Of a stretch of 64,000 bases of DNA, positions 21,280-30,172 are shown piece by piece. Source of the stretch: Leptospiraceae bacterium. GTDB lineage: Bacteria > Spirochaetota > Leptospiria > Leptospirales > Leptonemataceae. Each line of letters starts with the position of its first letter. The first letter of the stretch is position 1. A program made the position numbers and the translations under genes. The stretch is from NCBI GenBank assembly GCA_040217195.1, contig JAVJNR010000003.1, positions 704,001-768,000 on the forward strand, read 5' to 3'. Below the pieces are notes generated by a model, which was not told where the DNA came from, searched no databases, and worked only from the letters and a program-made list of their open reading frames with translations.

Positions 21280-23667
21280 ATGAGGCGAATCTTTGCAACC
21301 TGTGTAATACTCTTAATCATTCCTTCCGGCTTATTTGCCAGTGACGGTGTTGCGGCCTTCTCCCATGCAGAAGCAGATATATTGTGGGTCATTATCGCCT
21401 CCGCCCTGGTTCTATTCATGCAAGCCGGATTTCTCATGCTGGAAACCGGCATGGTTCGAGCCAAGAACACAATTAATGTAGCTTTTAAGAATCTGTTCGA
21501 CTTCTTCATTGGCGTTGTGGCCTTCTTCGCTTTAGGTTATGGTATAATGTTCGGAAGTTCCTACCTGGGGTGGATCGGAACAGATAACTTCTTTCTGGCT
21601 CAGGTAAAGGAGCCTTCTAAGTTCGCTTTCTTTCTTTTTCAAGCCACCTTTCTAGGAACAGCGGCCACTATCGCATCCGGTGCAGTGGCCGAACGAATGA
21701 GGTTCAGCGCTTACATCCTCATTTCACTGTTTGCATCCATCTGGATTTATCCAGTCTTCGGGCACTGGGCCTGGGGCGGAGGATGGTTAAGCGAAATGGG
21801 ATTTATCGATTTCGCAGGCAGCACAGTGGTGCATTCCACTGGCGGATGGATTGCTCTGGCAGCGATCATTATGCTTGGGCCCCGTCAGGATAAATTCGAT
21901 GAATCCGGTAAACCCCGGAAAATCACAGGCCATAATCTTCCGGCCGCTGCCCTGGGAACCTTTATCCTGATGTTTGGCTGGCTGGGATTCAATGGCGGAA
22001 GCACTCTTGCATACACAGATGCAATACCTCTTATTCTAGTAAATACCACCATCGCGGCCGCCGGCGGAGCTCTTTCTGCCATGGTCGTAAGTTGGATTCG
22101 CTTTAGAGCTCCCGCTGTGGAAGATGGAATCAACGGGGTTCTGGGCGGTCTGGTTGCCATCACTGCAGGATGCCATATGATGTCGCCTGCCATGGCTCTG
22201 CTCGTAGGGGGCATCGCAGGCATTATTGCCTCTCTTTTTGTTATTCTTCTGGAGAACTTCTTTCGCCTGGATGATGTAGTGGGAGCATTCACCGTACATA
22301 GTGTATGCGGAGTCTGGGGAACCCTGGCCCTGGCACTGGTGGGAAATACATCAAGCTTTGCCACAACCAATGGTGAGCCCATCAGTCGCCTGGAACAGAT
22401 GGGAATTCAACTCATAGGCGTGGGCAGCAATACCCTGTGGGCCTTTGGTCTGGCTCTAATCTTCTTCTGGACTATCAAACGGTTCACTCCTCTGAGAGTG
22501 ACTGCAAAAGAAGAAAGCGATGGTCTTAACTTTTCGGAACACAATGCAAGAACCAACTGGTTCGAATTAATGCGATCCATGGATTCCATGGCACGAGGTG
22601 AAGGAGACCTGAGTACAAAACTGGAGGTGGAACCGGCCACTGCAGAAGGAGCCATTGCAGAGGTATTTAATCGAATCCAGGAAAGGATGTACGGTCTAAT
22701 CGCACAGATTCATACAAGTGTAGACCAAATGGAAATGGCTGCTTCAGATATGACAGAAGTTTCTGTGGATATCAACTCGACTGTAGAAGAACAATCGGCG
22801 CAGCTAGAAGAAATAAATGCACTGATGGAATTAATCAGTAAAGCGGTGAAAGATGTAGCTGAATTTACAGAAAAGCAAAACCATCTATCAACCCAGGTGG
22901 AGGCCATGATAGGCCGAACAGTGGATTCTGCTTCCAGGCTTCATAGTCGCATCGATCAGGCCACGGAACGGGCCGGAAATGGGCGAAATCTAGCCAGCGA
23001 AGGCCAGAAAGTTCTGGGCGAATTGTCCCATGGGATGCAGGGAATTGAGCAGGGGGCCGGCCAGGTAATGAACATCGTAAAGACTCTTCAGAAAATCTCC
23101 GAGCAGCTATCCTTTCTTTCCATCAATGCAAGTATTGAAGCGGCCCGTTCCGGTCATGACGGGATGGGCTTTGCTGTGGTAGCCGGAGAAATTAATAACC
23201 TGGCAGAGTTTACGGCAGCCCGTACCAAGGAAGCGCAGAGTCATATATCTGAAATGCAACGATGGGTGACCACGGGCAGCGCTGGAATCGACAGGACCAG
23301 AAATTCCTTCCGGACAATTGCTGAAGAAGTGGCCAACATCGATGAAGAACTCAAACAGATTCGTAGTATTAGTGAAGATCAAAACGAACAGGGAAAACGA
23401 ATCCCGGAACTAATGTCCGAGCTAGATACGATGGCAGAATCTATAGAAGAAAATGTAAAGTCCAGATCCAAAGAGATTGGAGAGATCTACGAATCCATTT
23501 CCGAGCTGAACGATTCGCTCACGGACATGAACAGGAGAACAGAAAAGCTACAGGATACAGGCAGTAGTCTCCATGAAAATGCTCTGGGCTTGCAGAAGCT
23601 TACGGCCCGCTTTCGCCTGGACAGGTTCGGCTCTCACCCAACCCAGGCATTGCCAGGCCAGGCATAA
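21280..23667 (+). CDS. Ammonium transporter (Amt) fused to a HAMP-like linker and methyl-accepting chemotaxis signalling domain
   Basis: Amt: FMQAGF..LE.G.VR.KN, SGAVAER, WAWGGGWL, DFAGSTVVH, GW.GFNGGS, DD..GAFTVH. MCP: LSINASIEAARSG..G.GFAVVA.EI..LA. Confidence 0.93.
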   Translation: MRRIFATCVILLIIPSGLFASDGVAAFSHAEADILWVIIASALVLFMQAGFLMLETGMVRAKNTINVAFKNLFDFFIGVVAFFALGYGIMFGSSYLGWIGTDNFFLAQVKEPSKFAFFLFQATFLGTAATIASGAVAERMRFSAYILISLFASIWIYPVFGHWAWGGGWLSEMGFIDFAGSTVVHSTGGWIALAAIIMLGPRQDKFDESGKPRKITGHNLPAAALGTFILMFGWLGFNGGSTLAYTDAIPLILVNTTIAAAGGALSAMVVSWIRFRAPAVEDGINGVLGGLVAITAGCHMMSPAMALLVGGIAGIIASLFVILLENFFRLDDVVGAFTVHSVCGVWGTLALALVGNTSSFATTNGEPISRLEQMGIQLIGVGSNTLWAFGLALIFFWTIKRFTPLRVTAKEESDGLNFSEHNARTNWFELMRSMDSMARGEGDLSTKLEVEPATAEGAIAEVFNRIQERMYGLIAQIHTSVDQMEMAASDMTEVSVDINSTVEEQSAQLEEINALMELISKAVKDVAEFTEKQNHLSTQVEAMIGRTVDSASRLHSRIDQATERAGNGRNLASEGQKVLGELSHGMQGIEQGAGQVMNIVKTLQKISEQLSFLSINASIEAARSGHDGMGFAVVAGEINNLAEFTAARTKEAQSHISEMQRWVTTGSAGIDRTRNSFRTIAEEVANIDEELKQIRSISEDQNEQGKRIPELMSELDTMAESIEENVKSRSKEIGEIYESISELNDSLTDMNRRTEKLQDTGSSLHENALGLQKLTARFRLDRFGSHPTQALPGQA

Positions 23668-23830: not shown

Positions 23831-24379
23831 TTAGCCCCAGAGCTTCAAATGGCGAGGTTCTTCCTTCGATTCAGGACCGTTCATTCTATACTCTCGCTGC
23901 GCCTGACTCTGCAAGCTGTTGGCTTCGTTAGCAACAAGCATATCCGGTGCGGAAGGATCACCAGGTGCCATGGCCGCCAGACGAATCTGATTGGCCCGAG
24001 CGGCCGTGGCCTCCGGATCGCCAGGAACCGGGCTTGTATCGATTCGAACTTTCCCGCCTATTGCATAGGGCTTCCCATCCGGTCCAATGGCATATTCAAA
24101 TGTGGGTCCACCCTTGGCCAGGGTTCCCGCTGCAGCCATATGCTTCTGTTCATGGAGGCGGACTTCTCGATCCCGCTCCTTCAATTCATCTAGAAGGGCC
24201 TTTTCTTCATCCGAAAGTCTGGTCTCATTTTGCAAGCCTGATCGAGCAGACCTGCCTGGTTCCGCCCTTTCTACACCTTTGTCCGGACTCACATTTCTGG
24301 TGATAACCATGCCATTGGACATGATTCCCAGCAGATCTCGATTCGGATCCGCAATGATTCTTGAAATAGCCGGGGACAT
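23831..24379 (-). CDS. SprA-related family protein (putative metalloprotease, HEQxH)
   Basis: RDREVRLHEQKH..A.G...GG..FEY..GPDGK.YAIGG.V.ID...P.AT...A..I..AA.AP.DPS..D. Confidence 0.85.
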   Translation of the reverse strand: MSPAISRIIADPNRDLLGIMSNGMVITRNVSPDKGVERAEPGRSARSGLQNETRLSDEEKALLDELKERDREVRLHEQKHMAAAGTLAKGGPTFEYAIGPDGKPYAIGGKVRIDTSPVPGDPEATAARANQIRLAAMAPGDPSAPDMLVANEANSLQSQAQREYRMNGPESKEEPRHLKLWG

Positions 24380-24518
24380 ATATTGTTCAGAACCGCTCTT
24401 CGATTCAGTGATCGGAAAAAGTAGAATCGTACTTAATGGTTCAAAGAAAATGTTGACCGGCGGAAAGCCAGTCCCCGGATACTTGATTTTTCCAGTTCCA
24501 GGAAATCCGAGGACTCAG

Positions 24519-24962
24519 ATGTTGTTGGTGCGCACCTATATTGATCGCAGTGGAATTCATGGCATAGGATTGTTTGCAGATGAATTCATACCGGCAGGGA
24601 CAATGATCTGGCAGTTACTGCCGGCCTTCGATTTGATTATCAGCGAAACAGACCTGGCACAGCAGTCCAGGGTAGTCCAGGAATACGTGGGCAAATATGG
24701 CTACCTCAGCCCGGAAAGCCAGGGATACGTAATCTGTTCAGATGATGCAAGATTCTTCAACCATGCAGATGAGCCGAATACAAGATCCATCAGCCATGAG
24801 GTAACTCTGGCGCTCCGGGATATAGAGAAAGGGGAAGAACTAACCTGCAATTACTTCGAGTTTGATGCAACGGCCATCAATCATTTTCGCGGTCTCAGGG
24901 ACACGGAACCCGTGGCCGGTGCGATTCCGGATAATCCAGAAAATGGTAGGGAGGCTTCCTGA
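24519..24962 (+). CDS. SET-domain protein (putative lysine methyltransferase)
   Basis: SGIHGIGLFA, RFFNHADEPN, ALRDIEKGEELTCNY; start ATG 24519 with GAGG upstream. Confidence 0.9.
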   Translation: MLLVRTYIDRSGIHGIGLFADEFIPAGTMIWQLLPAFDLIISETDLAQQSRVVQEYVGKYGYLSPESQGYVICSDDARFFNHADEPNTRSISHEVTLALRDIEKGEELTCNYFEFDATAINHFRGLRDTEPVAGAIPDNPENGREAS

Positions 24963-24999
24963 TATAAGAAGTCCATGGGCAGAGCAGACCAAACGAAAA

Positions 25000-26286
25000 T
25001 CAGGGCTGATCGGCGTTGTTTCTGAATCTGGCTGTAATTGGCTGCATAGCGCTCGGTGCCAGTGAGTTTCGGGCCAGTAGATCCACATACCTGGCTGAAA
25101 GCACTGTTACTCTGTAGCGATAACCACCCAGGGCTTCCGAATGATAGGAAACCGGATTGGCCAGCTGAATGACTACAGACCTGTCTTCAGGATAAACACA
25201 GATCTCAGAAAAAGTACCGTTCCATAGTCCACTATGGAAGAAAGTCTTCACCAGTCCATTGTGAGCTTCCACACGGAACCCGTGGGAGTAATATTGCATG
25301 TGCTTGGTCACGGGCATGAAAGCCGGAGGCTGCAGCATTTCCTGGACGGAATCTGGTCTTAGAATTTCCGCCCCTTCCAGGGTTCCACCGCCAAGCAGCA
25401 TTCGGCCAAAACGACCCAGGTCATGAATACTGGAAGAGATACCAGAGGAGCCTTTGATTCCTGGACTGGCAGTGCTATCTCGCATGCCCAGTGGCTCAAA
25501 AATAGCCTGTTCCAGGTATTCCGGATAAGTCATTCGACTGGCATTTTCGATTATAGCGGCCAGGTGGGCATAATTTCCGTTGGAATACTGATGCCGAATT
25601 CCAGGAGCATAGGATGGTAATGAAGAACCGTAAGAAATCCCGGACGTATGAAGAAGAAGGTCTCGAACTGTTATCTGACCGAATTCAGGCCGACTGACAT
25701 GGACCCCGTATCGTGATATGGGGGCATCCAGATCTACCAATCCGTCTTCCACCAGAGTCATAACAGCTACCGCGGTAAAAGACTTGGTAAGGGATGCAAT
25801 TGGCTGACTTCTGTGTGAATCCAGGCCCTGATAGATTTTAACTGCAGGCTGCTCTTCAAGATAGATCTCTACAGCTGCACTGGGTACAATTTGATCGGAA
25901 ACTGCGGATTTAACGTAACCCAGGAGCTCCTGTTCGGCCCTGAGAGCCGCCCGAGATCTTTGAATTCTGGCTTCCCGATGTCCCTGAGTCAGCCTCACCC
26001 TGGGTGGCTCATAGCTAATAGCCCGGTCTGTCCTGGCAGGAGGAGGTACATCCAGACCCACATCAGGAAATAGGTTATCTTCTGGAAACTGCAGTGAATC
26101 GGACGCCTCTTTATATGAGAAAACGGATGCCATGGGCATGGGAACGATCAAAAGCAAGGCAAGTGCTACCCGATGCGCAATTTTCTTTTTCTGCTCCGGG
26201 CGGAGCAAAGGCCTGGAAGGGGCGCCGCTCTCATAGGGAGAAAGGCGGGCCACTCGATTTCCCTGTGCGTCCATAATCAAAGGCAT
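25000..26286 (-). CDS. Serine hydrolase, beta-lactamase class C/AmpH-like family
   Basis: SxxK (IASLTKSF), LLLHTSG, YSN, HSG; N-terminal TM anchor. Confidence 0.88.
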   Translation of the reverse strand: MPLIMDAQGNRVARLSPYESGAPSRPLLRPEQKKKIAHRVALALLLIVPMPMASVFSYKEASDSLQFPEDNLFPDVGLDVPPPARTDRAISYEPPRVRLTQGHREARIQRSRAALRAEQELLGYVKSAVSDQIVPSAAVEIYLEEQPAVKIYQGLDSHRSQPIASLTKSFTAVAVMTLVEDGLVDLDAPISRYGVHVSRPEFGQITVRDLLLHTSGISYGSSLPSYAPGIRHQYSNGNYAHLAAIIENASRMTYPEYLEQAIFEPLGMRDSTASPGIKGSSGISSSIHDLGRFGRMLLGGGTLEGAEILRPDSVQEMLQPPAFMPVTKHMQYYSHGFRVEAHNGLVKTFFHSGLWNGTFSEICVYPEDRSVVIQLANPVSYHSEALGGYRYRVTVLSARYVDLLARNSLAPSAMQPITARFRNNADQP

Positions 26287-26585
26287 ATCCCTCTATAAAT
26301 CGGCCAAATGCTGATAAAATTCCAAAAAAAGCTAATGGATTGGCCCAAATGATTCGTCTAAGCTTGACTTTCAATTCTTTTTTGCACTGCACTGAGACAT
26401 TAGCTTCCGGGCCGAGCTCGGTCCATCCGGGAGCGTTCTTTCCCGGCCCTCCGCTCCTCAAAATCTTCCGTAAGCGATTGAATTTAACTCCAATCAGCCC
26501 TGCCTCCGCTCACTGGCTGGATTTCCTGGTTTATGCGGCCGGGACCGGAACCGATGGGATGGGATCTGTGGCGGATCCAGCCGAG

Positions 26586-27029
26586 TTATGTCGTATTACG
26601 GTGGTTCGCGCGGATTATGTCTCATTAGCTCTCCGGGGCCTGGATTATGTCTCATAAAGGATTGGCGGCGCCGTATTATGTCACATCGCCGTTCAGCGGC
26701 CGGATTATGTCGTATTTGAAGCCGGGCCGAAGGCCGGAACTCAGATTGGCCAGGAATCGCAAAATCGACCGACCCAGGACTGCTGAATCGCCCGTTTTAC
26801 AGGCAGATATCTCCCGCTTCTTAGCTCGCTTTGAGCCTCCCCCTCCGGTGAACACAGGGCCCAATTTTGTCGGGCGGCTGAGAGGACCGTTGAGTAGATT
26901 ATGTCGCATCGGGGGGATCGGATCGGATTATGTCACGTTGCCTTCAGAAGGAGAGAGATATTATGTAACATCTTGTCAGGGTCGCAAAATTATGTCGCAT
27001 CGCATGTGCAATGCTGTATTATGTCACAT
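26586..27029 (+). repeat. Bipartite direct-repeat array: 2 x 5 copies of an 11-bp core TTATGTCNYAT with unique spacers
   Basis: Cores start at 26586, 26615, 26645, 26676, 26705 and 26899, 26928, 26961, 26990, 27019. Confidence 0.95.
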
Positions 27030-27162
27030 TACTGCGGTACTGAAGGATCATATCCTATTGCCTTTTCGGCGGAGGTATAACATTCATACAATCCAGGTCG
27101 GACTTTCGCAGTGCCCTTTGCCAGACGACCAACCCGGGAATACTAAACTGGATACCTGCCAG

Positions 27163-27717
27163 CTATCCGGCAGATTTTCTCTCGCGAATCCAGTTTTCCA
27201 GTTCGCGATTCACTTTTTCAGCCATAGAACCAAAGGATTCCAGTTCCTCCGGGCGGAAATTGCCCAGTAAATAGGATGCTATCTCCCCTCTCTCCGGTCT
27301 ACCGACACCGATTCGCACACGGAAAAAATTGCCATTACCCAATCGAGCAATAATATCCCGCAGACCATTGTGCCCTTTATGCCCTCCATCCTTTTTTAGC
27401 CGTACATCTCCAAACGCCAGTTCGGCTTCATCGTGCAGAACAATGATATTTTCCTGTTTGATGCCGCTGGATGCCATAGCCTTTTGCAGAGGACCGCCGG
27501 ATCGGTTCATATAGGTCATAGGCTTGAAAAGGATCAAATTCATGGAGAAAAGCTCAGCTTCAGCCATATCTCCATCATGCTTGGTTCGCCAGCTCACCGG
27601 AAGTGGCAGGTCCTCTGCAAACCGGTCCAGGGCCAGAAATCCAGCATTGTGACGAGTCTTGCTGTACTGATTGCCCGGGTTTCCCAGACCTACAATCATC
27701 AATCGCGAACCAGACAT
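27163..27717 (-). CDS. pth: Peptidyl-tRNA hydrolase
   Basis: IVGLGNPG..Y..TRHNAGF, KP.TYMNRSG, HDE, GHNGLRDI, RIGVGRP. Confidence 0.97.
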   Translation of the reverse strand: MSGSRLMIVGLGNPGNQYSKTRHNAGFLALDRFAEDLPLPVSWRTKHDGDMAEAELFSMNLILFKPMTYMNRSGGPLQKAMASSGIKQENIIVLHDEAELAFGDVRLKKDGGHKGHNGLRDIIARLGNGNFFRVRIGVGRPERGEIASYLLGNFRPEELESFGSMAEKVNRELENWIRERKSAG

Positions 27718-27774
27718 GGAGCCAGAGGCCAGGTTGCACTTGACCCGAAAAGGAAAAAACAGCGAGTCTACAAT

Positions 27775-29229
27775 ATGAACCGCCCTGCTCACCTGGTGCT
27801 GGCCCGAAAGTATCGTCCATTGAAGTTTGCCGATGTGGTTGAGCAAACAACTGCGGTCCGTGCACTGCAAAATGCAGCCCTGGAAGATCGAATCGGTTCG
27901 GCTTATCTGTTTTTTGGTCCCAGAGGTGTAGGAAAAACCACAATAGCAAGGATCCTGGCACGTCGAATAAACTGCACCGACCCAAAAGAGGGGGAGCCCT
28001 GTAATCAGTGCGAATCCTGCCGATCAATTATCGACAGCAGGTCTCTAGATGTAATCGAAATAGATGCAGCATCAAACCGAAGGATCGAAGATGTAAGAGA
28101 GCTTCGCGAAAATGTGAAGTTCCAGCCGATGAATAGCAAGCGAAAGGTGTACATTATCGATGAGGTTCACATGCTTACCACGGAGTCTTTCAACGCATTG
28201 CTAAAGACCCTGGAAGAGCCGCCAGAGCATGCTGCCTTTGTCCTGGCCACCACCGAGCTGAATAAAGTTCCAGAAACCATACTTAGCCGATGCCAGGTAT
28301 TTACCTTTCGCAAGGTACCATTGCATCGGGTTCAGGAATACATGGCCGACATTTGTCGTAAGGAAAACATTGAAGCAGAAAACGATGCTCTATTCTGGAT
28401 TGCTCGCAAAGGCGATGGCTCGGTCCGAGATAGCCTGAGCTTTCTGGAACAGGCAATTAGCTTCTGCGGAAATAAAATAACATCAGAAAAAGTGCGCGAA
28501 TTGGCCGGAGTCTATCCTCTGGAATTGTTCCTTCAGCTCACAACGCTGCTTATGAATCCGGCCACCCCTTCGCAGGATCTGGCTATGCCTGTCATGGAAA
28601 TATTTGACCAGGGCGGCGATCTGAATCGTTTTATCTGGGACTACCTGGACCATCTTAGAATCATACGCTACATTCGCTCGGGCGTGGAAGATTCAGATTT
28701 TCTGGGAATTCCGGGAAGTCAAATTCAGAATATAAAGTCCAGAGCCATGGAGTTTGATCCTGCACGAATATCCTTGATTTTTGACGAAATTCATGGATTG
28801 CTCACCACCGCCTTCTTTCTTAAACTTCGCAACTCCTATGAATCTCGTATTCTGATTGAGATGGAGTTGTTGAAAATCCATGATCGTCTTAAGAAGCCTT
28901 CGGTGAGCGCACTTATCAGCAAGATCCAAAAGCTCAGTGTAAGTCTGGCAGGACAGGATTCCCGCCGGAGCGAAGATTTAATGGCTGACCTTCCGGAAGA
29001 TTCCGGTCTCACTTCGCAGGCCCAGCCGCAAAACCAGAACCCCCGACCTTCGCAGCCGCTGCCCGGCCAATCGGCGCCCGGCAAAGATCAAACACCAGGT
29101 CCATCCTCAGATAAAAGCGATTCTACAATCAAAGGTAATGATTCGATTCCGATTGAAGATGAGCTGCAAAAGCAGTTTCTTGGGACCATGGTAGATCCGG
29201 AAAGTGTGCCAAACGAACCGGACGAATAA
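27775..29229 (+). CDS. dnaX: DNA polymerase III subunit gamma/tau
   Basis: LARKYRP..F, GPRGVGKTT, Cys cluster, EIDAASN, IIDEVHML, NALLKTLEEPP, TILSRC. Confidence 0.97.
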   Translation: MNRPAHLVLARKYRPLKFADVVEQTTAVRALQNAALEDRIGSAYLFFGPRGVGKTTIARILARRINCTDPKEGEPCNQCESCRSIIDSRSLDVIEIDAASNRRIEDVRELRENVKFQPMNSKRKVYIIDEVHMLTTESFNALLKTLEEPPEHAAFVLATTELNKVPETILSRCQVFTFRKVPLHRVQEYMADICRKENIEAENDALFWIARKGDGSVRDSLSFLEQAISFCGNKITSEKVRELAGVYPLELFLQLTTLLMNPATPSQDLAMPVMEIFDQGGDLNRFIWDYLDHLRIIRYIRSGVEDSDFLGIPGSQIQNIKSRAMEFDPARISLIFDEIHGLLTTAFFLKLRNSYESRILIEMELLKIHDRLKKPSVSALISKIQKLSVSLAGQDSRRSEDLMADLPEDSGLTSQAQPQNQNPRPSQPLPGQSAPGKDQTPGPSSDKSDSTIKGNDSIPIEDELQKQFLGTMVDPESVPNEPDE

Positions 29230-29249
29230 GGGGCATCAGGAGAAATGCA

Positions 29250-29576
29250 ATGGAGAACATGAATTTTTCAGATTTGTTCAAAAATCTGGGCGGAATGAAA
29301 TCTAAAATGGAAGAAGCCAAACGTAAAATCGAAAGAATTACGGTGTCCGGTGAATCCGGGGCGGGCATGGTCACAGCCAAAATGGATGGCTCCGGAAAGC
29401 TTCTTTCTGTTTCTGTGGATGAAAGACTACTGGATCCCAAAGAGAAAGATCTGATGGAAGAATTGATTACAGGCGCCGTAAACGATGCTCAAGCGAAAAT
29501 GAAAGAAGCGGTGGCCCATGAAATCAAGTCTGCAACAGGAATGGATATTCCAGGCCTTGGTGGAATGTTTGGATAA
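29250..29576 (+). CDS. ebfC: YbaB/EbfC nucleoid-associated protein
   Basis: GESGAGMV, EELI.GAVNDA; canonical dnaX-ybaB-recR order. Confidence 0.93.
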   Translation: MENMNFSDLFKNLGGMKSKMEEAKRKIERITVSGESGAGMVTAKMDGSGKLLSVSVDERLLDPKEKDLMEELITGAVNDAQAKMKEAVAHEIKSATGMDIPGLGGMFG

Positions 29577-30172
29577 TGCAATTCCCTGCGCTGGAACAGC
29601 TAGTAGATGTGCTTGGATCTTTACCGGGTGTGGGCAAAAAATCTGCAAGGCGAATTGCTTTTCATATCCTGAAATCCGATCCGGAAGTTAGCAGACGACT
29701 CAGTGATTCCGTAGCTCATCTGCGAAAGGAAGTGCGTTTCTGTGCTCAGTGCGGTGGCCTTTCTCAATCAGAATTGTGTCACATTTGTTCCGATACACAT
29801 AGAAATCAAAGACTGCTGTGCGTTGTGGAGGATCCATCGGACATCTTTTCCATCGAAGACACAGGAGAATTCAGCGGACTCTACCATGTATTGATGGGAG
29901 CTCTATCTCCTCTGGACGGCATAGGCCCGGATGATCTTCGCATTCAAGAATTAAGCCAGAGGATTGAAACCCATCCTTTTGATGAGATCTTTATTGCCAC
30001 AAATCCTACTCTGGAAGGGGATGCAACAGCTCATTATATCTCTGAACTATTCGCTCACCGTGGATTTCGGTTTACACGAATTTCGCATGGCATCGCCACC
30101 GGGGCAAGCATCGAATATGCAGATAAAGGAACCCTGGCCAGATCCATACGCGAAAGAAAATCCCTGGAATGA
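29576..30172 (+). CDS. recR: Recombination mediator RecR
   Basis: LPGVGKKSA.R, C4 zinc finger, YHVL.G.LSPLDG, ATNPTLEGDATA. Confidence 0.98.
   Translation: MQFPALEQLVDVLGSLPGVGKKSARRIAFHILKSDPEVSRRLSDSVAHLRKEVRFCAQCGGLSQSELCHICSDTHRNQRLLCVVEDPSDIFSIEDTGEFSGLYHVLMGALSPLDGIGPDDLRIQELSQRIETHPFDEIFIATNPTLEGDATAHYISELFAHRGFRFTRISHGIATGASIEYADKGTLARSIRERKSLE

Follow-up and report, generated by a model that had tools for sequence, protein, structure and literature searches.

Ten dif-arm half-sites in one intergenic region

What are ten copies of an 11-bp motif, all on the same strand, doing in a long gap between two genes of a Leptospiraceae bacterium? Here the window is the whole stretch of DNA analyzed, 64,000 nucleotides long, G000 is the label of the host genome, and its contigs are labeled C1 to C10. 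All ten cores described in the initial annotation were recovered with their sequences and spacings on the plus strand. Block 1 (26586..26715) has five XerD-arm half-sites starting at 26586, 26615, 26645, 26676, and 26705, and block 2 (26899..27029) has five starting at 26899, 26928, 26961, 26990, and 27019. Start-to-start distances are 29, 30, 31, and 29 bp, then 194 bp across an inter-block gap of 183 bp (26716..26898), and then 29, 33, 29, and 29 bp. Reading of the sequence also bore out the A that precedes nine of the ten cores and the eight spacers of 18 to 22 bp, no two of which are alike while the cores are intact. The 876-bp intergenic stretch holds 10 motif matches, compared to at most 2 in any of 20,000 first-order resamplings.

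The flanking genes are as first described. The array lies on the 3' side of pth, which encodes peptidyl-tRNA hydrolase (27163..27720, minus strand) and is followed in the host by dnaX, ybaB, and recR; pth serves as a landmark, and any functional link to the array would be putative. On the other side, a gene for a beta-lactamase-family serine hydrolase (25000..26286, minus strand) starts 300 bp from the nearest core. None of the 12 open reading frames (ORFs) scanned around the array belongs to an integrase, Rep, or Cas family, in line with the earlier claim, with the qualification that the host xerD sits 29 kb from the array, just beyond the window edge. A coding repeat was rejected, since the ORFs of 207 and 105 amino acids across the array have no Pfam match and the spacings are neither multiples of three nor conserved. 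Elsewhere in the window, at 21280-23667, an ammonium transporter is fused to a methyl-accepting chemotaxis signaling domain.

The chromosomal dif of the host lies on C5, whose cumulative skew peaks about 25 kb away. It is the sole motif copy on the chromosome with an XerC-type arm and a 6-bp center, and two more such copies are found on the circular contigs C8 and C9 (82 kb), the three true dif sites being C5:423401, C8:51869, and C9:32134 (minus strand). The full dif pattern is present in 29 of 31 genomes, G000 counted. From the E. coli dif arm and established knowledge, we take the TTATGT arm to be the XerD arm. In the chromosomal dif this arm, TTATGTCTCAT, is identical to cores 2 and 3 at 11 of 11 positions, with the preceding GGA shared too, and all ten cores have 0 to 2 mismatches of 11 to it. 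Eight of the ten equal natural dif arms letter for letter among 30 dif loci read, cores 7 and 8 being variants absent from the arms collected there. The dif arms and the dispersed sites discussed below are both variable at position 8, and both have a T/A tail.

No XerC arm could be found beside the cores; compared with the host C arm, the DNA beside every core differs at 6 to 10 of 11 positions. Set against chromosomal dif and XerC-XerD, as covered in the sections consulted of one review (PMC5357621), the array resembles dif in that its 11-bp right arm is the host dif arm; it differs in having no XerC arm 6 bp upstream, and hence no 11-6-11 layout, and in its head-to-tail copies far from the terminus, whereas the true dif sites occur singly on C5, C8, and C9, one per replicon. 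The host xerD scores above its family cutoff; an XerC-like gene scores best as XerC, yet below the XerC cutoff. Since no XerC arm accompanies the cores, no recombination synapse is expected to form, and judged by its arms the array cannot act as a resolution site. The initial reading of multi-copy XerD half-sites lacking an XerC arm is therefore strongly supported by the perfect match to the host's own dif arm, and further by the cores that equal relatives' dif arms and by a site type that shifts with the dif arm across lineages. Overall, the array is real and conserved, is not dif, and is best read as a non-recombining cluster of XerD-only sites; XerD very probably binds its cores.

Dispersed sites at division and flagellar promoters

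The motif is not confined to the array. In the host genome, ATTATGTCNCAT occurs in 44 copies compared to about 1 expected under a fifth-order model, and 42 of these strict sites are intergenic and 2 genic according to our own simple gene caller. In all but one of 31 genomes the motif outnumbers its reversed control, the exception being G007 (3 versus 3). Half of 26 site loci (13) fall in divergent gaps (p 0.005), and one falls in a convergent gap. Genes downstream of sites in the host include fliF, fliG, fliO, flhF, ftsQ-ftsA, parA of C8 and C9, a dnaA paralog, lexA, recX, an HU/IHF gene, and a class II ribonucleotide reductase gene; the sites at the par loci of C8 and C9 are single ones.

Relatives were mapped in part, covering all 23 strict sites of G027, 20 regions of G011, 17 of G014, 15 of G024, 7 of G029, 5 of G008, and one region of G030. 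Of the 65 genes found behind a site in these relatives, 19 are preceded by one in G000 as well, against a G000 background of 81 of 3,856 genes, and the ftsQ-ftsA site recurs in five of the six relatives mapped. The distant genome G107 has nine non-dif sites, located at fliL, fliO/P, the rsmH (dcw) region, ftsZ, flgB, fliF, and two ribosomal-protein genes.

Two genes were followed across the phylum. For ftsZ, 30 of 38 matches yielded loci. Among families beyond the class of the host, 14 of 14 host-type loci have a site within 300 bp upstream; the counts are 0 of 4 inside the class, where mapped relatives have the site before ftsQ, and 0 of 12 at loci with other arm types. For fliF, 20 of 21 host-type loci have an upstream site, compared to only 2 of 10 loci from other-arm genomes. 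In these tests, eight genomes were labeled host-type (C-type) by their class or family rather than by a dif of their own. The remaining 65 kb of the ftsZ loci contain 0 sites. The low count at other-arm fliF loci indicates that the regulon is not phylum-wide. One putative site upstream of ftsZ, in G067, was rejected as ftsZ is located elsewhere in that genome.

Mapped transcription starts are available for Leptospira interrogans. The promoter letters of G024 and G029 closely match rows of the L. interrogans start table, which suggests the order Leptospirales. Among the Table 4 rows found in PMC5243855, the motif ends 9 nt before the primary start of flgC, and in the ftsQ region its end is 37 nt ahead of a strong start, with a -35-like hexamer immediately below it; at fliF, an opposite-orientation variant ends at -1 of the primary start. 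Several further rows of that table with the 8-letter strings are unrelated. Read from these rows, the motif lies in the core promoter of flgC, fliF, and ftsQ. The portions consulted of the same study state that few Leptospira transcription-factor sites are known and that no promoter motif beyond sigma-54 was found, and these portions give no report of an XerD-arm motif. A sigma-factor element was considered and rejected: in 111 contexts, the distance between the motif and a -35-like hexamer is not sharply fixed, and the position and orientation of the motif vary against the mapped starts, which fits an operator rather than a sigma element. A single RNA run covered 0.05 of words, left the array uncovered, and is uninformative on expression.

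The Xer genes themselves may be among the targets. In 6 of 21 genomes, the xerD frame is preceded by near-matches at 46 to 150 bp, and in G336 five cores form an array directly upstream of the XerC-like gene, which together hint at Xer autoregulation via upstream sites.

Several sites accompany replication genes. A second, divergent dnaA-like gene near the terminus (L057:2650-3966; G000:C5:323647-324966) has an XerD-arm site upstream in G000, G011, and G014, and both host dnaA genes score below the family cutoff. An XerD-arm site is kept in the oriC gap between dnaA and dnaN of G024 and G029. On chromosome II, one lies between parB and the next gene in both families examined.

A proposed XerD regulon, its sink, and the chromosome

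XerD clamps a single dif arm as a monomer. XerD monomers would likewise clamp individual arms of the array, where the absent XerC arm would preclude a synapse, and the same half-site would be a conserved operator at ftsQA or ftsZ promoters, at flagellar basal-body promoters (fliF, flgB/C, fliL, fliO/P, and flhF), and at partition and replication genes, as well as near the par loci of secondary replicons. XerD bound at these promoters would cover the -10 region or flank the -35 region, so that it could repress or activate, both being feasible. It is likely that XerD regulates the site-bearing promoters in one direction or the other, and the array is probably the visible tip of this XerD regulon. 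The target set recalls Caulobacter CtrA, one DNA-binding protein with sites at replication origins and at the genes of division and early flagellar assembly; the regulator proposed here would be a tyrosine recombinase on a monomer half-site and not a response regulator.

What would such a regulon need arrays for? Since many sites lie away from target promoters, a sink would be their simplest use. This array and four smaller ones could serve as decoy sinks that set the level of free XerD, with a capacity that doubles as forks pass. Located 0.9 Mb from oriC, this array would be duplicated part-way through replication, shifting XerD off promoters and thereby timing division and flagellar assembly to chromosome replication. 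A natural precedent is datA, a cluster of DnaA sites that titrates a promoter-regulating protein and is duplicated at a set time in replication; the array would work alike as a site cluster for a promoter regulator, with a different protein and motif. The chance that the array titrates XerD as a sink is about even. The explanation taken whole, an XerD docking array titrating an XerD-controlled division and flagellar regulon, may equally well prove right or wrong, and we lean slightly toward the broader view, in which XerD, the chromosome-dimer resolvase, is an unrecognized regulator of cell-cycle transcription in several deep lineages of spirochaetes, Leptospira included, and is titrated by arrays during replication.

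The finding bears on how, in spirochaetes, division and the assembly of polar periplasmic flagella are matched to the chromosome cycle, and it supplies a candidate regulator with its 11-bp operator, its targets, and a putative natural titration element. If true, a role as transcription factor would be a third job of XerD, after recombination and SMC unloading, and division and the building of periplasmic flagella would be coupled to chromosome state. A literature search, with subscription journals and preprint supplements outside its scope, found no report of XerD half-sites at promoters, of the motif in Leptospira, or of natural arrays.

The initial annotation had placed the array in chromosome organization by analogy with the XDS (XerD-only sites) of Bacillus subtilis. 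As described in the parts consulted of three articles (PMC11894783, PMC11840125, and PMC13342612), XDS are terminus-region sites at which SMC is unloaded, and an artificial chromosomal XDS array blocks Smc-ScpAB and makes a boundary (PMC11840125, citing Karaboja 2021). That engineered array is the nearest counterpart of the natural one. On this partial view of XDS, what is shared is dif-like XerD sites off dif, the absence of an XerC arm, and an SMC-encoding host (G000 has a full-length smc, above the family cutoff). In contrast to terminus-located, SMC-unloading XDS, the host sites lie on both arms and on all three replicons, at division and flagellar promoters, and are amplified into natural mid-arm arrays.

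Where does the array lie on the chromosome? Contig ends give the order C5-C4-C1-C7-C2, and site order in G005 gives C2-C3-reverse C10-C6-C5, with dnaA at C2:75 kb and oriC on C2. The array is mid-arm, with oriC 0.90 Mb and dif 1.32 Mb away, so by position it is not an XDS. Of the 24 chromosomal site loci, 4 fall in the interval that reaches 5% of chromosome length to each side of dif, compared to about 2.4 expected. Roughly 26 of some 60 host sites are in arrays among housekeeping genes, 0.7 to 1.55 Mb from oriC. An apparent replication-strand polarity (40 versus 14 by site) drops to 17 versus 7 by locus (p 0.064, not significant) and was set aside; in G024 and G030, most chromosome sites point the opposite way if the records begin at the origin. 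An XDS-like terminus cluster noted in G107 was withdrawn once its sites mapped to fli, flg, and dcw promoters.

Could the XerD-bound array instead shape the chromosome, as a natural XDS-array analogue that unloads or blocks Smc-ScpAB mid-arm, with the promoter sites a separate use of XerD? The full-length smc, the blocking of Smc-ScpAB by an artificial array (PMC11840125, in the part consulted), the lean of 17 versus 7 loci to one strand, and two smaller host arrays placed in near-mirror fashion about 700 kb from oriC, one per arm, would all suit such a role. The great distance from dif, sites without terminus enrichment, a strand bias short of significance, the preference of single sites for divergent, promoter-bearing gaps, and the division and flagellar operons found in place of the G107 terminus cluster speak against it. 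We consider this role unlikely, the XDS and SMC analogy having gained no positive support, although a structural array would still match the engineered XDS array as its counterpart in nature.

The conservation of the array bears on whether it has any function at all. The gene pth was located in five of six congeners (the assembly of the sixth, G006, is 58% complete), and all five, with Pth proteins 78 to 87% identical, have an array on the pth 3' side with 6 to 13 near-perfect cores in one orientation and unalignable spacers. The array thus recurs in relatives, with spacings that are not conserved. The bipartite layout described earlier is retained just in a loose form: the inter-block gap is conserved in neither length nor sequence, ranging from 66 to 344 bp in four congeners, and G001 has a single block. 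Nor is a phased, cooperative arrangement general, as 57 spacings across this and homologous arrays, entered by hand, vary between 22 and 54 bp and lack a 10.5-bp period (Rayleigh p 0.66), and helical phasing was rejected on these grounds.

Beyond the pth locus, G000 has four smaller arrays, beside serB, groES, gcvH/gcvP, and one gene of no assigned function. Of 190 genomes of the class, 16 contain three consecutive strict cores, including 7 of 7 in the host genus and a few in families f1, f2, f3, f53, and f54, and the arrays in f3, f53, and f54 consist of unrelated 31- to 49-bp units. No triple-core array was found in genera g14, g15, and g16, where promoter sites are kept, suggesting that arrays are dispensable for the regulon. 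Very long tandem XerD-arm arrays with units of 31 to 49 bp are present in G344 (123 overlapping triplet matches), G193, G352, G335, and G336.

Such patchiness raises the question of whether arrays are non-adaptive, arising where an XerD-site unit is repeatedly duplicated in a long gap, perhaps aided by XerD binding, with cores that persist while spacers drift. Near-identical adjacent units in G001 and G004 fit ongoing duplication, and the long tandem arrays of G193, G344, and G352, the patchy presence in the class, and a difference in array size at one orthologous locus (4 cores in G000 versus 1 strict core in G005) point the same way. This origin is nevertheless quite improbable: in the pth array the co-oriented cores stay near-perfect in every congener with pth found while the spacers cannot be aligned, and in the host all eight spacers differ between intact cores.

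Co-variation of the sites with the dif arm and XerD

Across 201 genomes of the phylum, motif enrichment is limited to certain families. Among 23 enriched genomes searched for dif, 21 have the TTATGTCNCAT arm and 2 yielded no dif; non-enriched families have dif arms ending in CTACT, TAACT, TAAGT, or AAAGT, or no clear site. In nine of ten other-arm genomes, the genome's own dif arm is not above the reversed control, indicating that the trait is limited, and in G067 it is modestly above (37 versus 22). The own arm type of G067 lies directly upstream of fliF, fliP, and fliL (3 of 11 non-dif loci fetched), and that of G039 lies upstream of fliF.

Family f15, with TTATGTTAACT or TTATGTTAAGT as its dif arm (3 genomes), offers a further case. 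All 30 fliF loci, from 31 genomes, carry 2 to 4 TTATGTWWACT-type sites that match the f15 dif arm type; these loci are close kin and count as one lineage, and by our reading of the rows none of them lacks a match to the pattern set beforehand, the TTTACT variant having been added after G067. Host-type sites and reversed-control matches both number 0 at these loci, and f15-type sites elsewhere number 0 in 129 kb. Two arm types each reappear at the orthologous fliF promoter. Such switching of promoter sites with the dif arm suggests that the reader of the dif arm, most simply XerD, also reads the promoters. The XerD helix aligned to E. coli RQTFWHRI is RKS[VA]WRLL in 21 of 21 host-type lineages and different in 9 of 9 others; the 21 host-type proteins form one clade (support 0.65), so the helix co-variation amounts to a single event.

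Might another transcription factor read the motif and also bind the dif arm, with the array as its sink? The regulon looks like one under a cell-cycle master regulator, the 15-mer is partly palindromic, and XerD as a transcription factor is unreported in the literature searched. Such a factor would have to be a second protein co-evolving on the same 11 bp, as the site tracks the dif arm across lineages; the core is asymmetric, with an invariant TC and a free position 8, and XerD would still be expected on such perfect arms. We therefore regard a separate factor as highly unlikely. A 225-amino-acid protein with a tyrosine-recombinase fold, no N-terminal domain, and altered catalytic residues is encoded at C4:235167-235844 (L112:2170-2844); it was rejected as the binder, since among 40 genomes only one, G005, has a strong match.

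The least probable reading, with a very slight chance in our view, makes the array a local operator of the serine hydrolase gene or a transcribed repeat-spacer or antisense RNA: it lies 300 to 730 bp upstream of the hydrolase in the orientation of most operators, and core 8 supplies the -10 of one sigma-70-like match, but that single match is at shuffle level (mean 1.0), no Rfam family comes near threshold, the identity with dif would be left unexplained, and in G001, where an unrelated convergent gene replaces the hydrolase, the array is retained in a convergent, promoter-less gap, so the hydrolase is probably not its target. The Rfam scan of 24000-30000 gave no credible match, its one snoRNA match (E 3.1) being outside the array, and folds of both blocks, inspected by eye with no shuffle control, had no repeated unit structure. 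A CRISPR or other repeat-spacer RNA finds no support, with no Cas family in the 12 nearby ORFs and a conserved unit of just 11 to 12 bp, and neither does an iteron or parS cluster, with pth and the hydrolase as flanks, oriC on C2, and no Rep or ParB neighbor. The iteron, parS, and repeat-spacer RNA alternatives raised in the initial annotation are disfavored.

Other Xer-related features were seen in the survey. In several lineages without promoter sites, ftsZ has an Xer gene within 2 kb and fliF has a different one within a few kb, the same link made via gene order; Xer genes near ftsZ or fliF fall into a first set (G130:C122, G037:C23, G044:C1:1466098-1468239, and G032:C36) and a second set (G037:C34, G099:C1:493365-499218, and G036:C243). 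G067 has three full dif-like sites (C1:137863, 420715, and 696208), two of them beside sugar-modification or metabolic genes, and these are possibly integrated elements. Head-to-head pairs of arm-like 11-mers with a 6-bp center are repeated within genomes (G023:C1:819856-819883 [L123], G029:C1:1275363-1275390 [L124], G029:C1:1514702-1514729, and G023:C3:60094-60121) and are possibly the ends or targets of a mobile element with a single recombinase.
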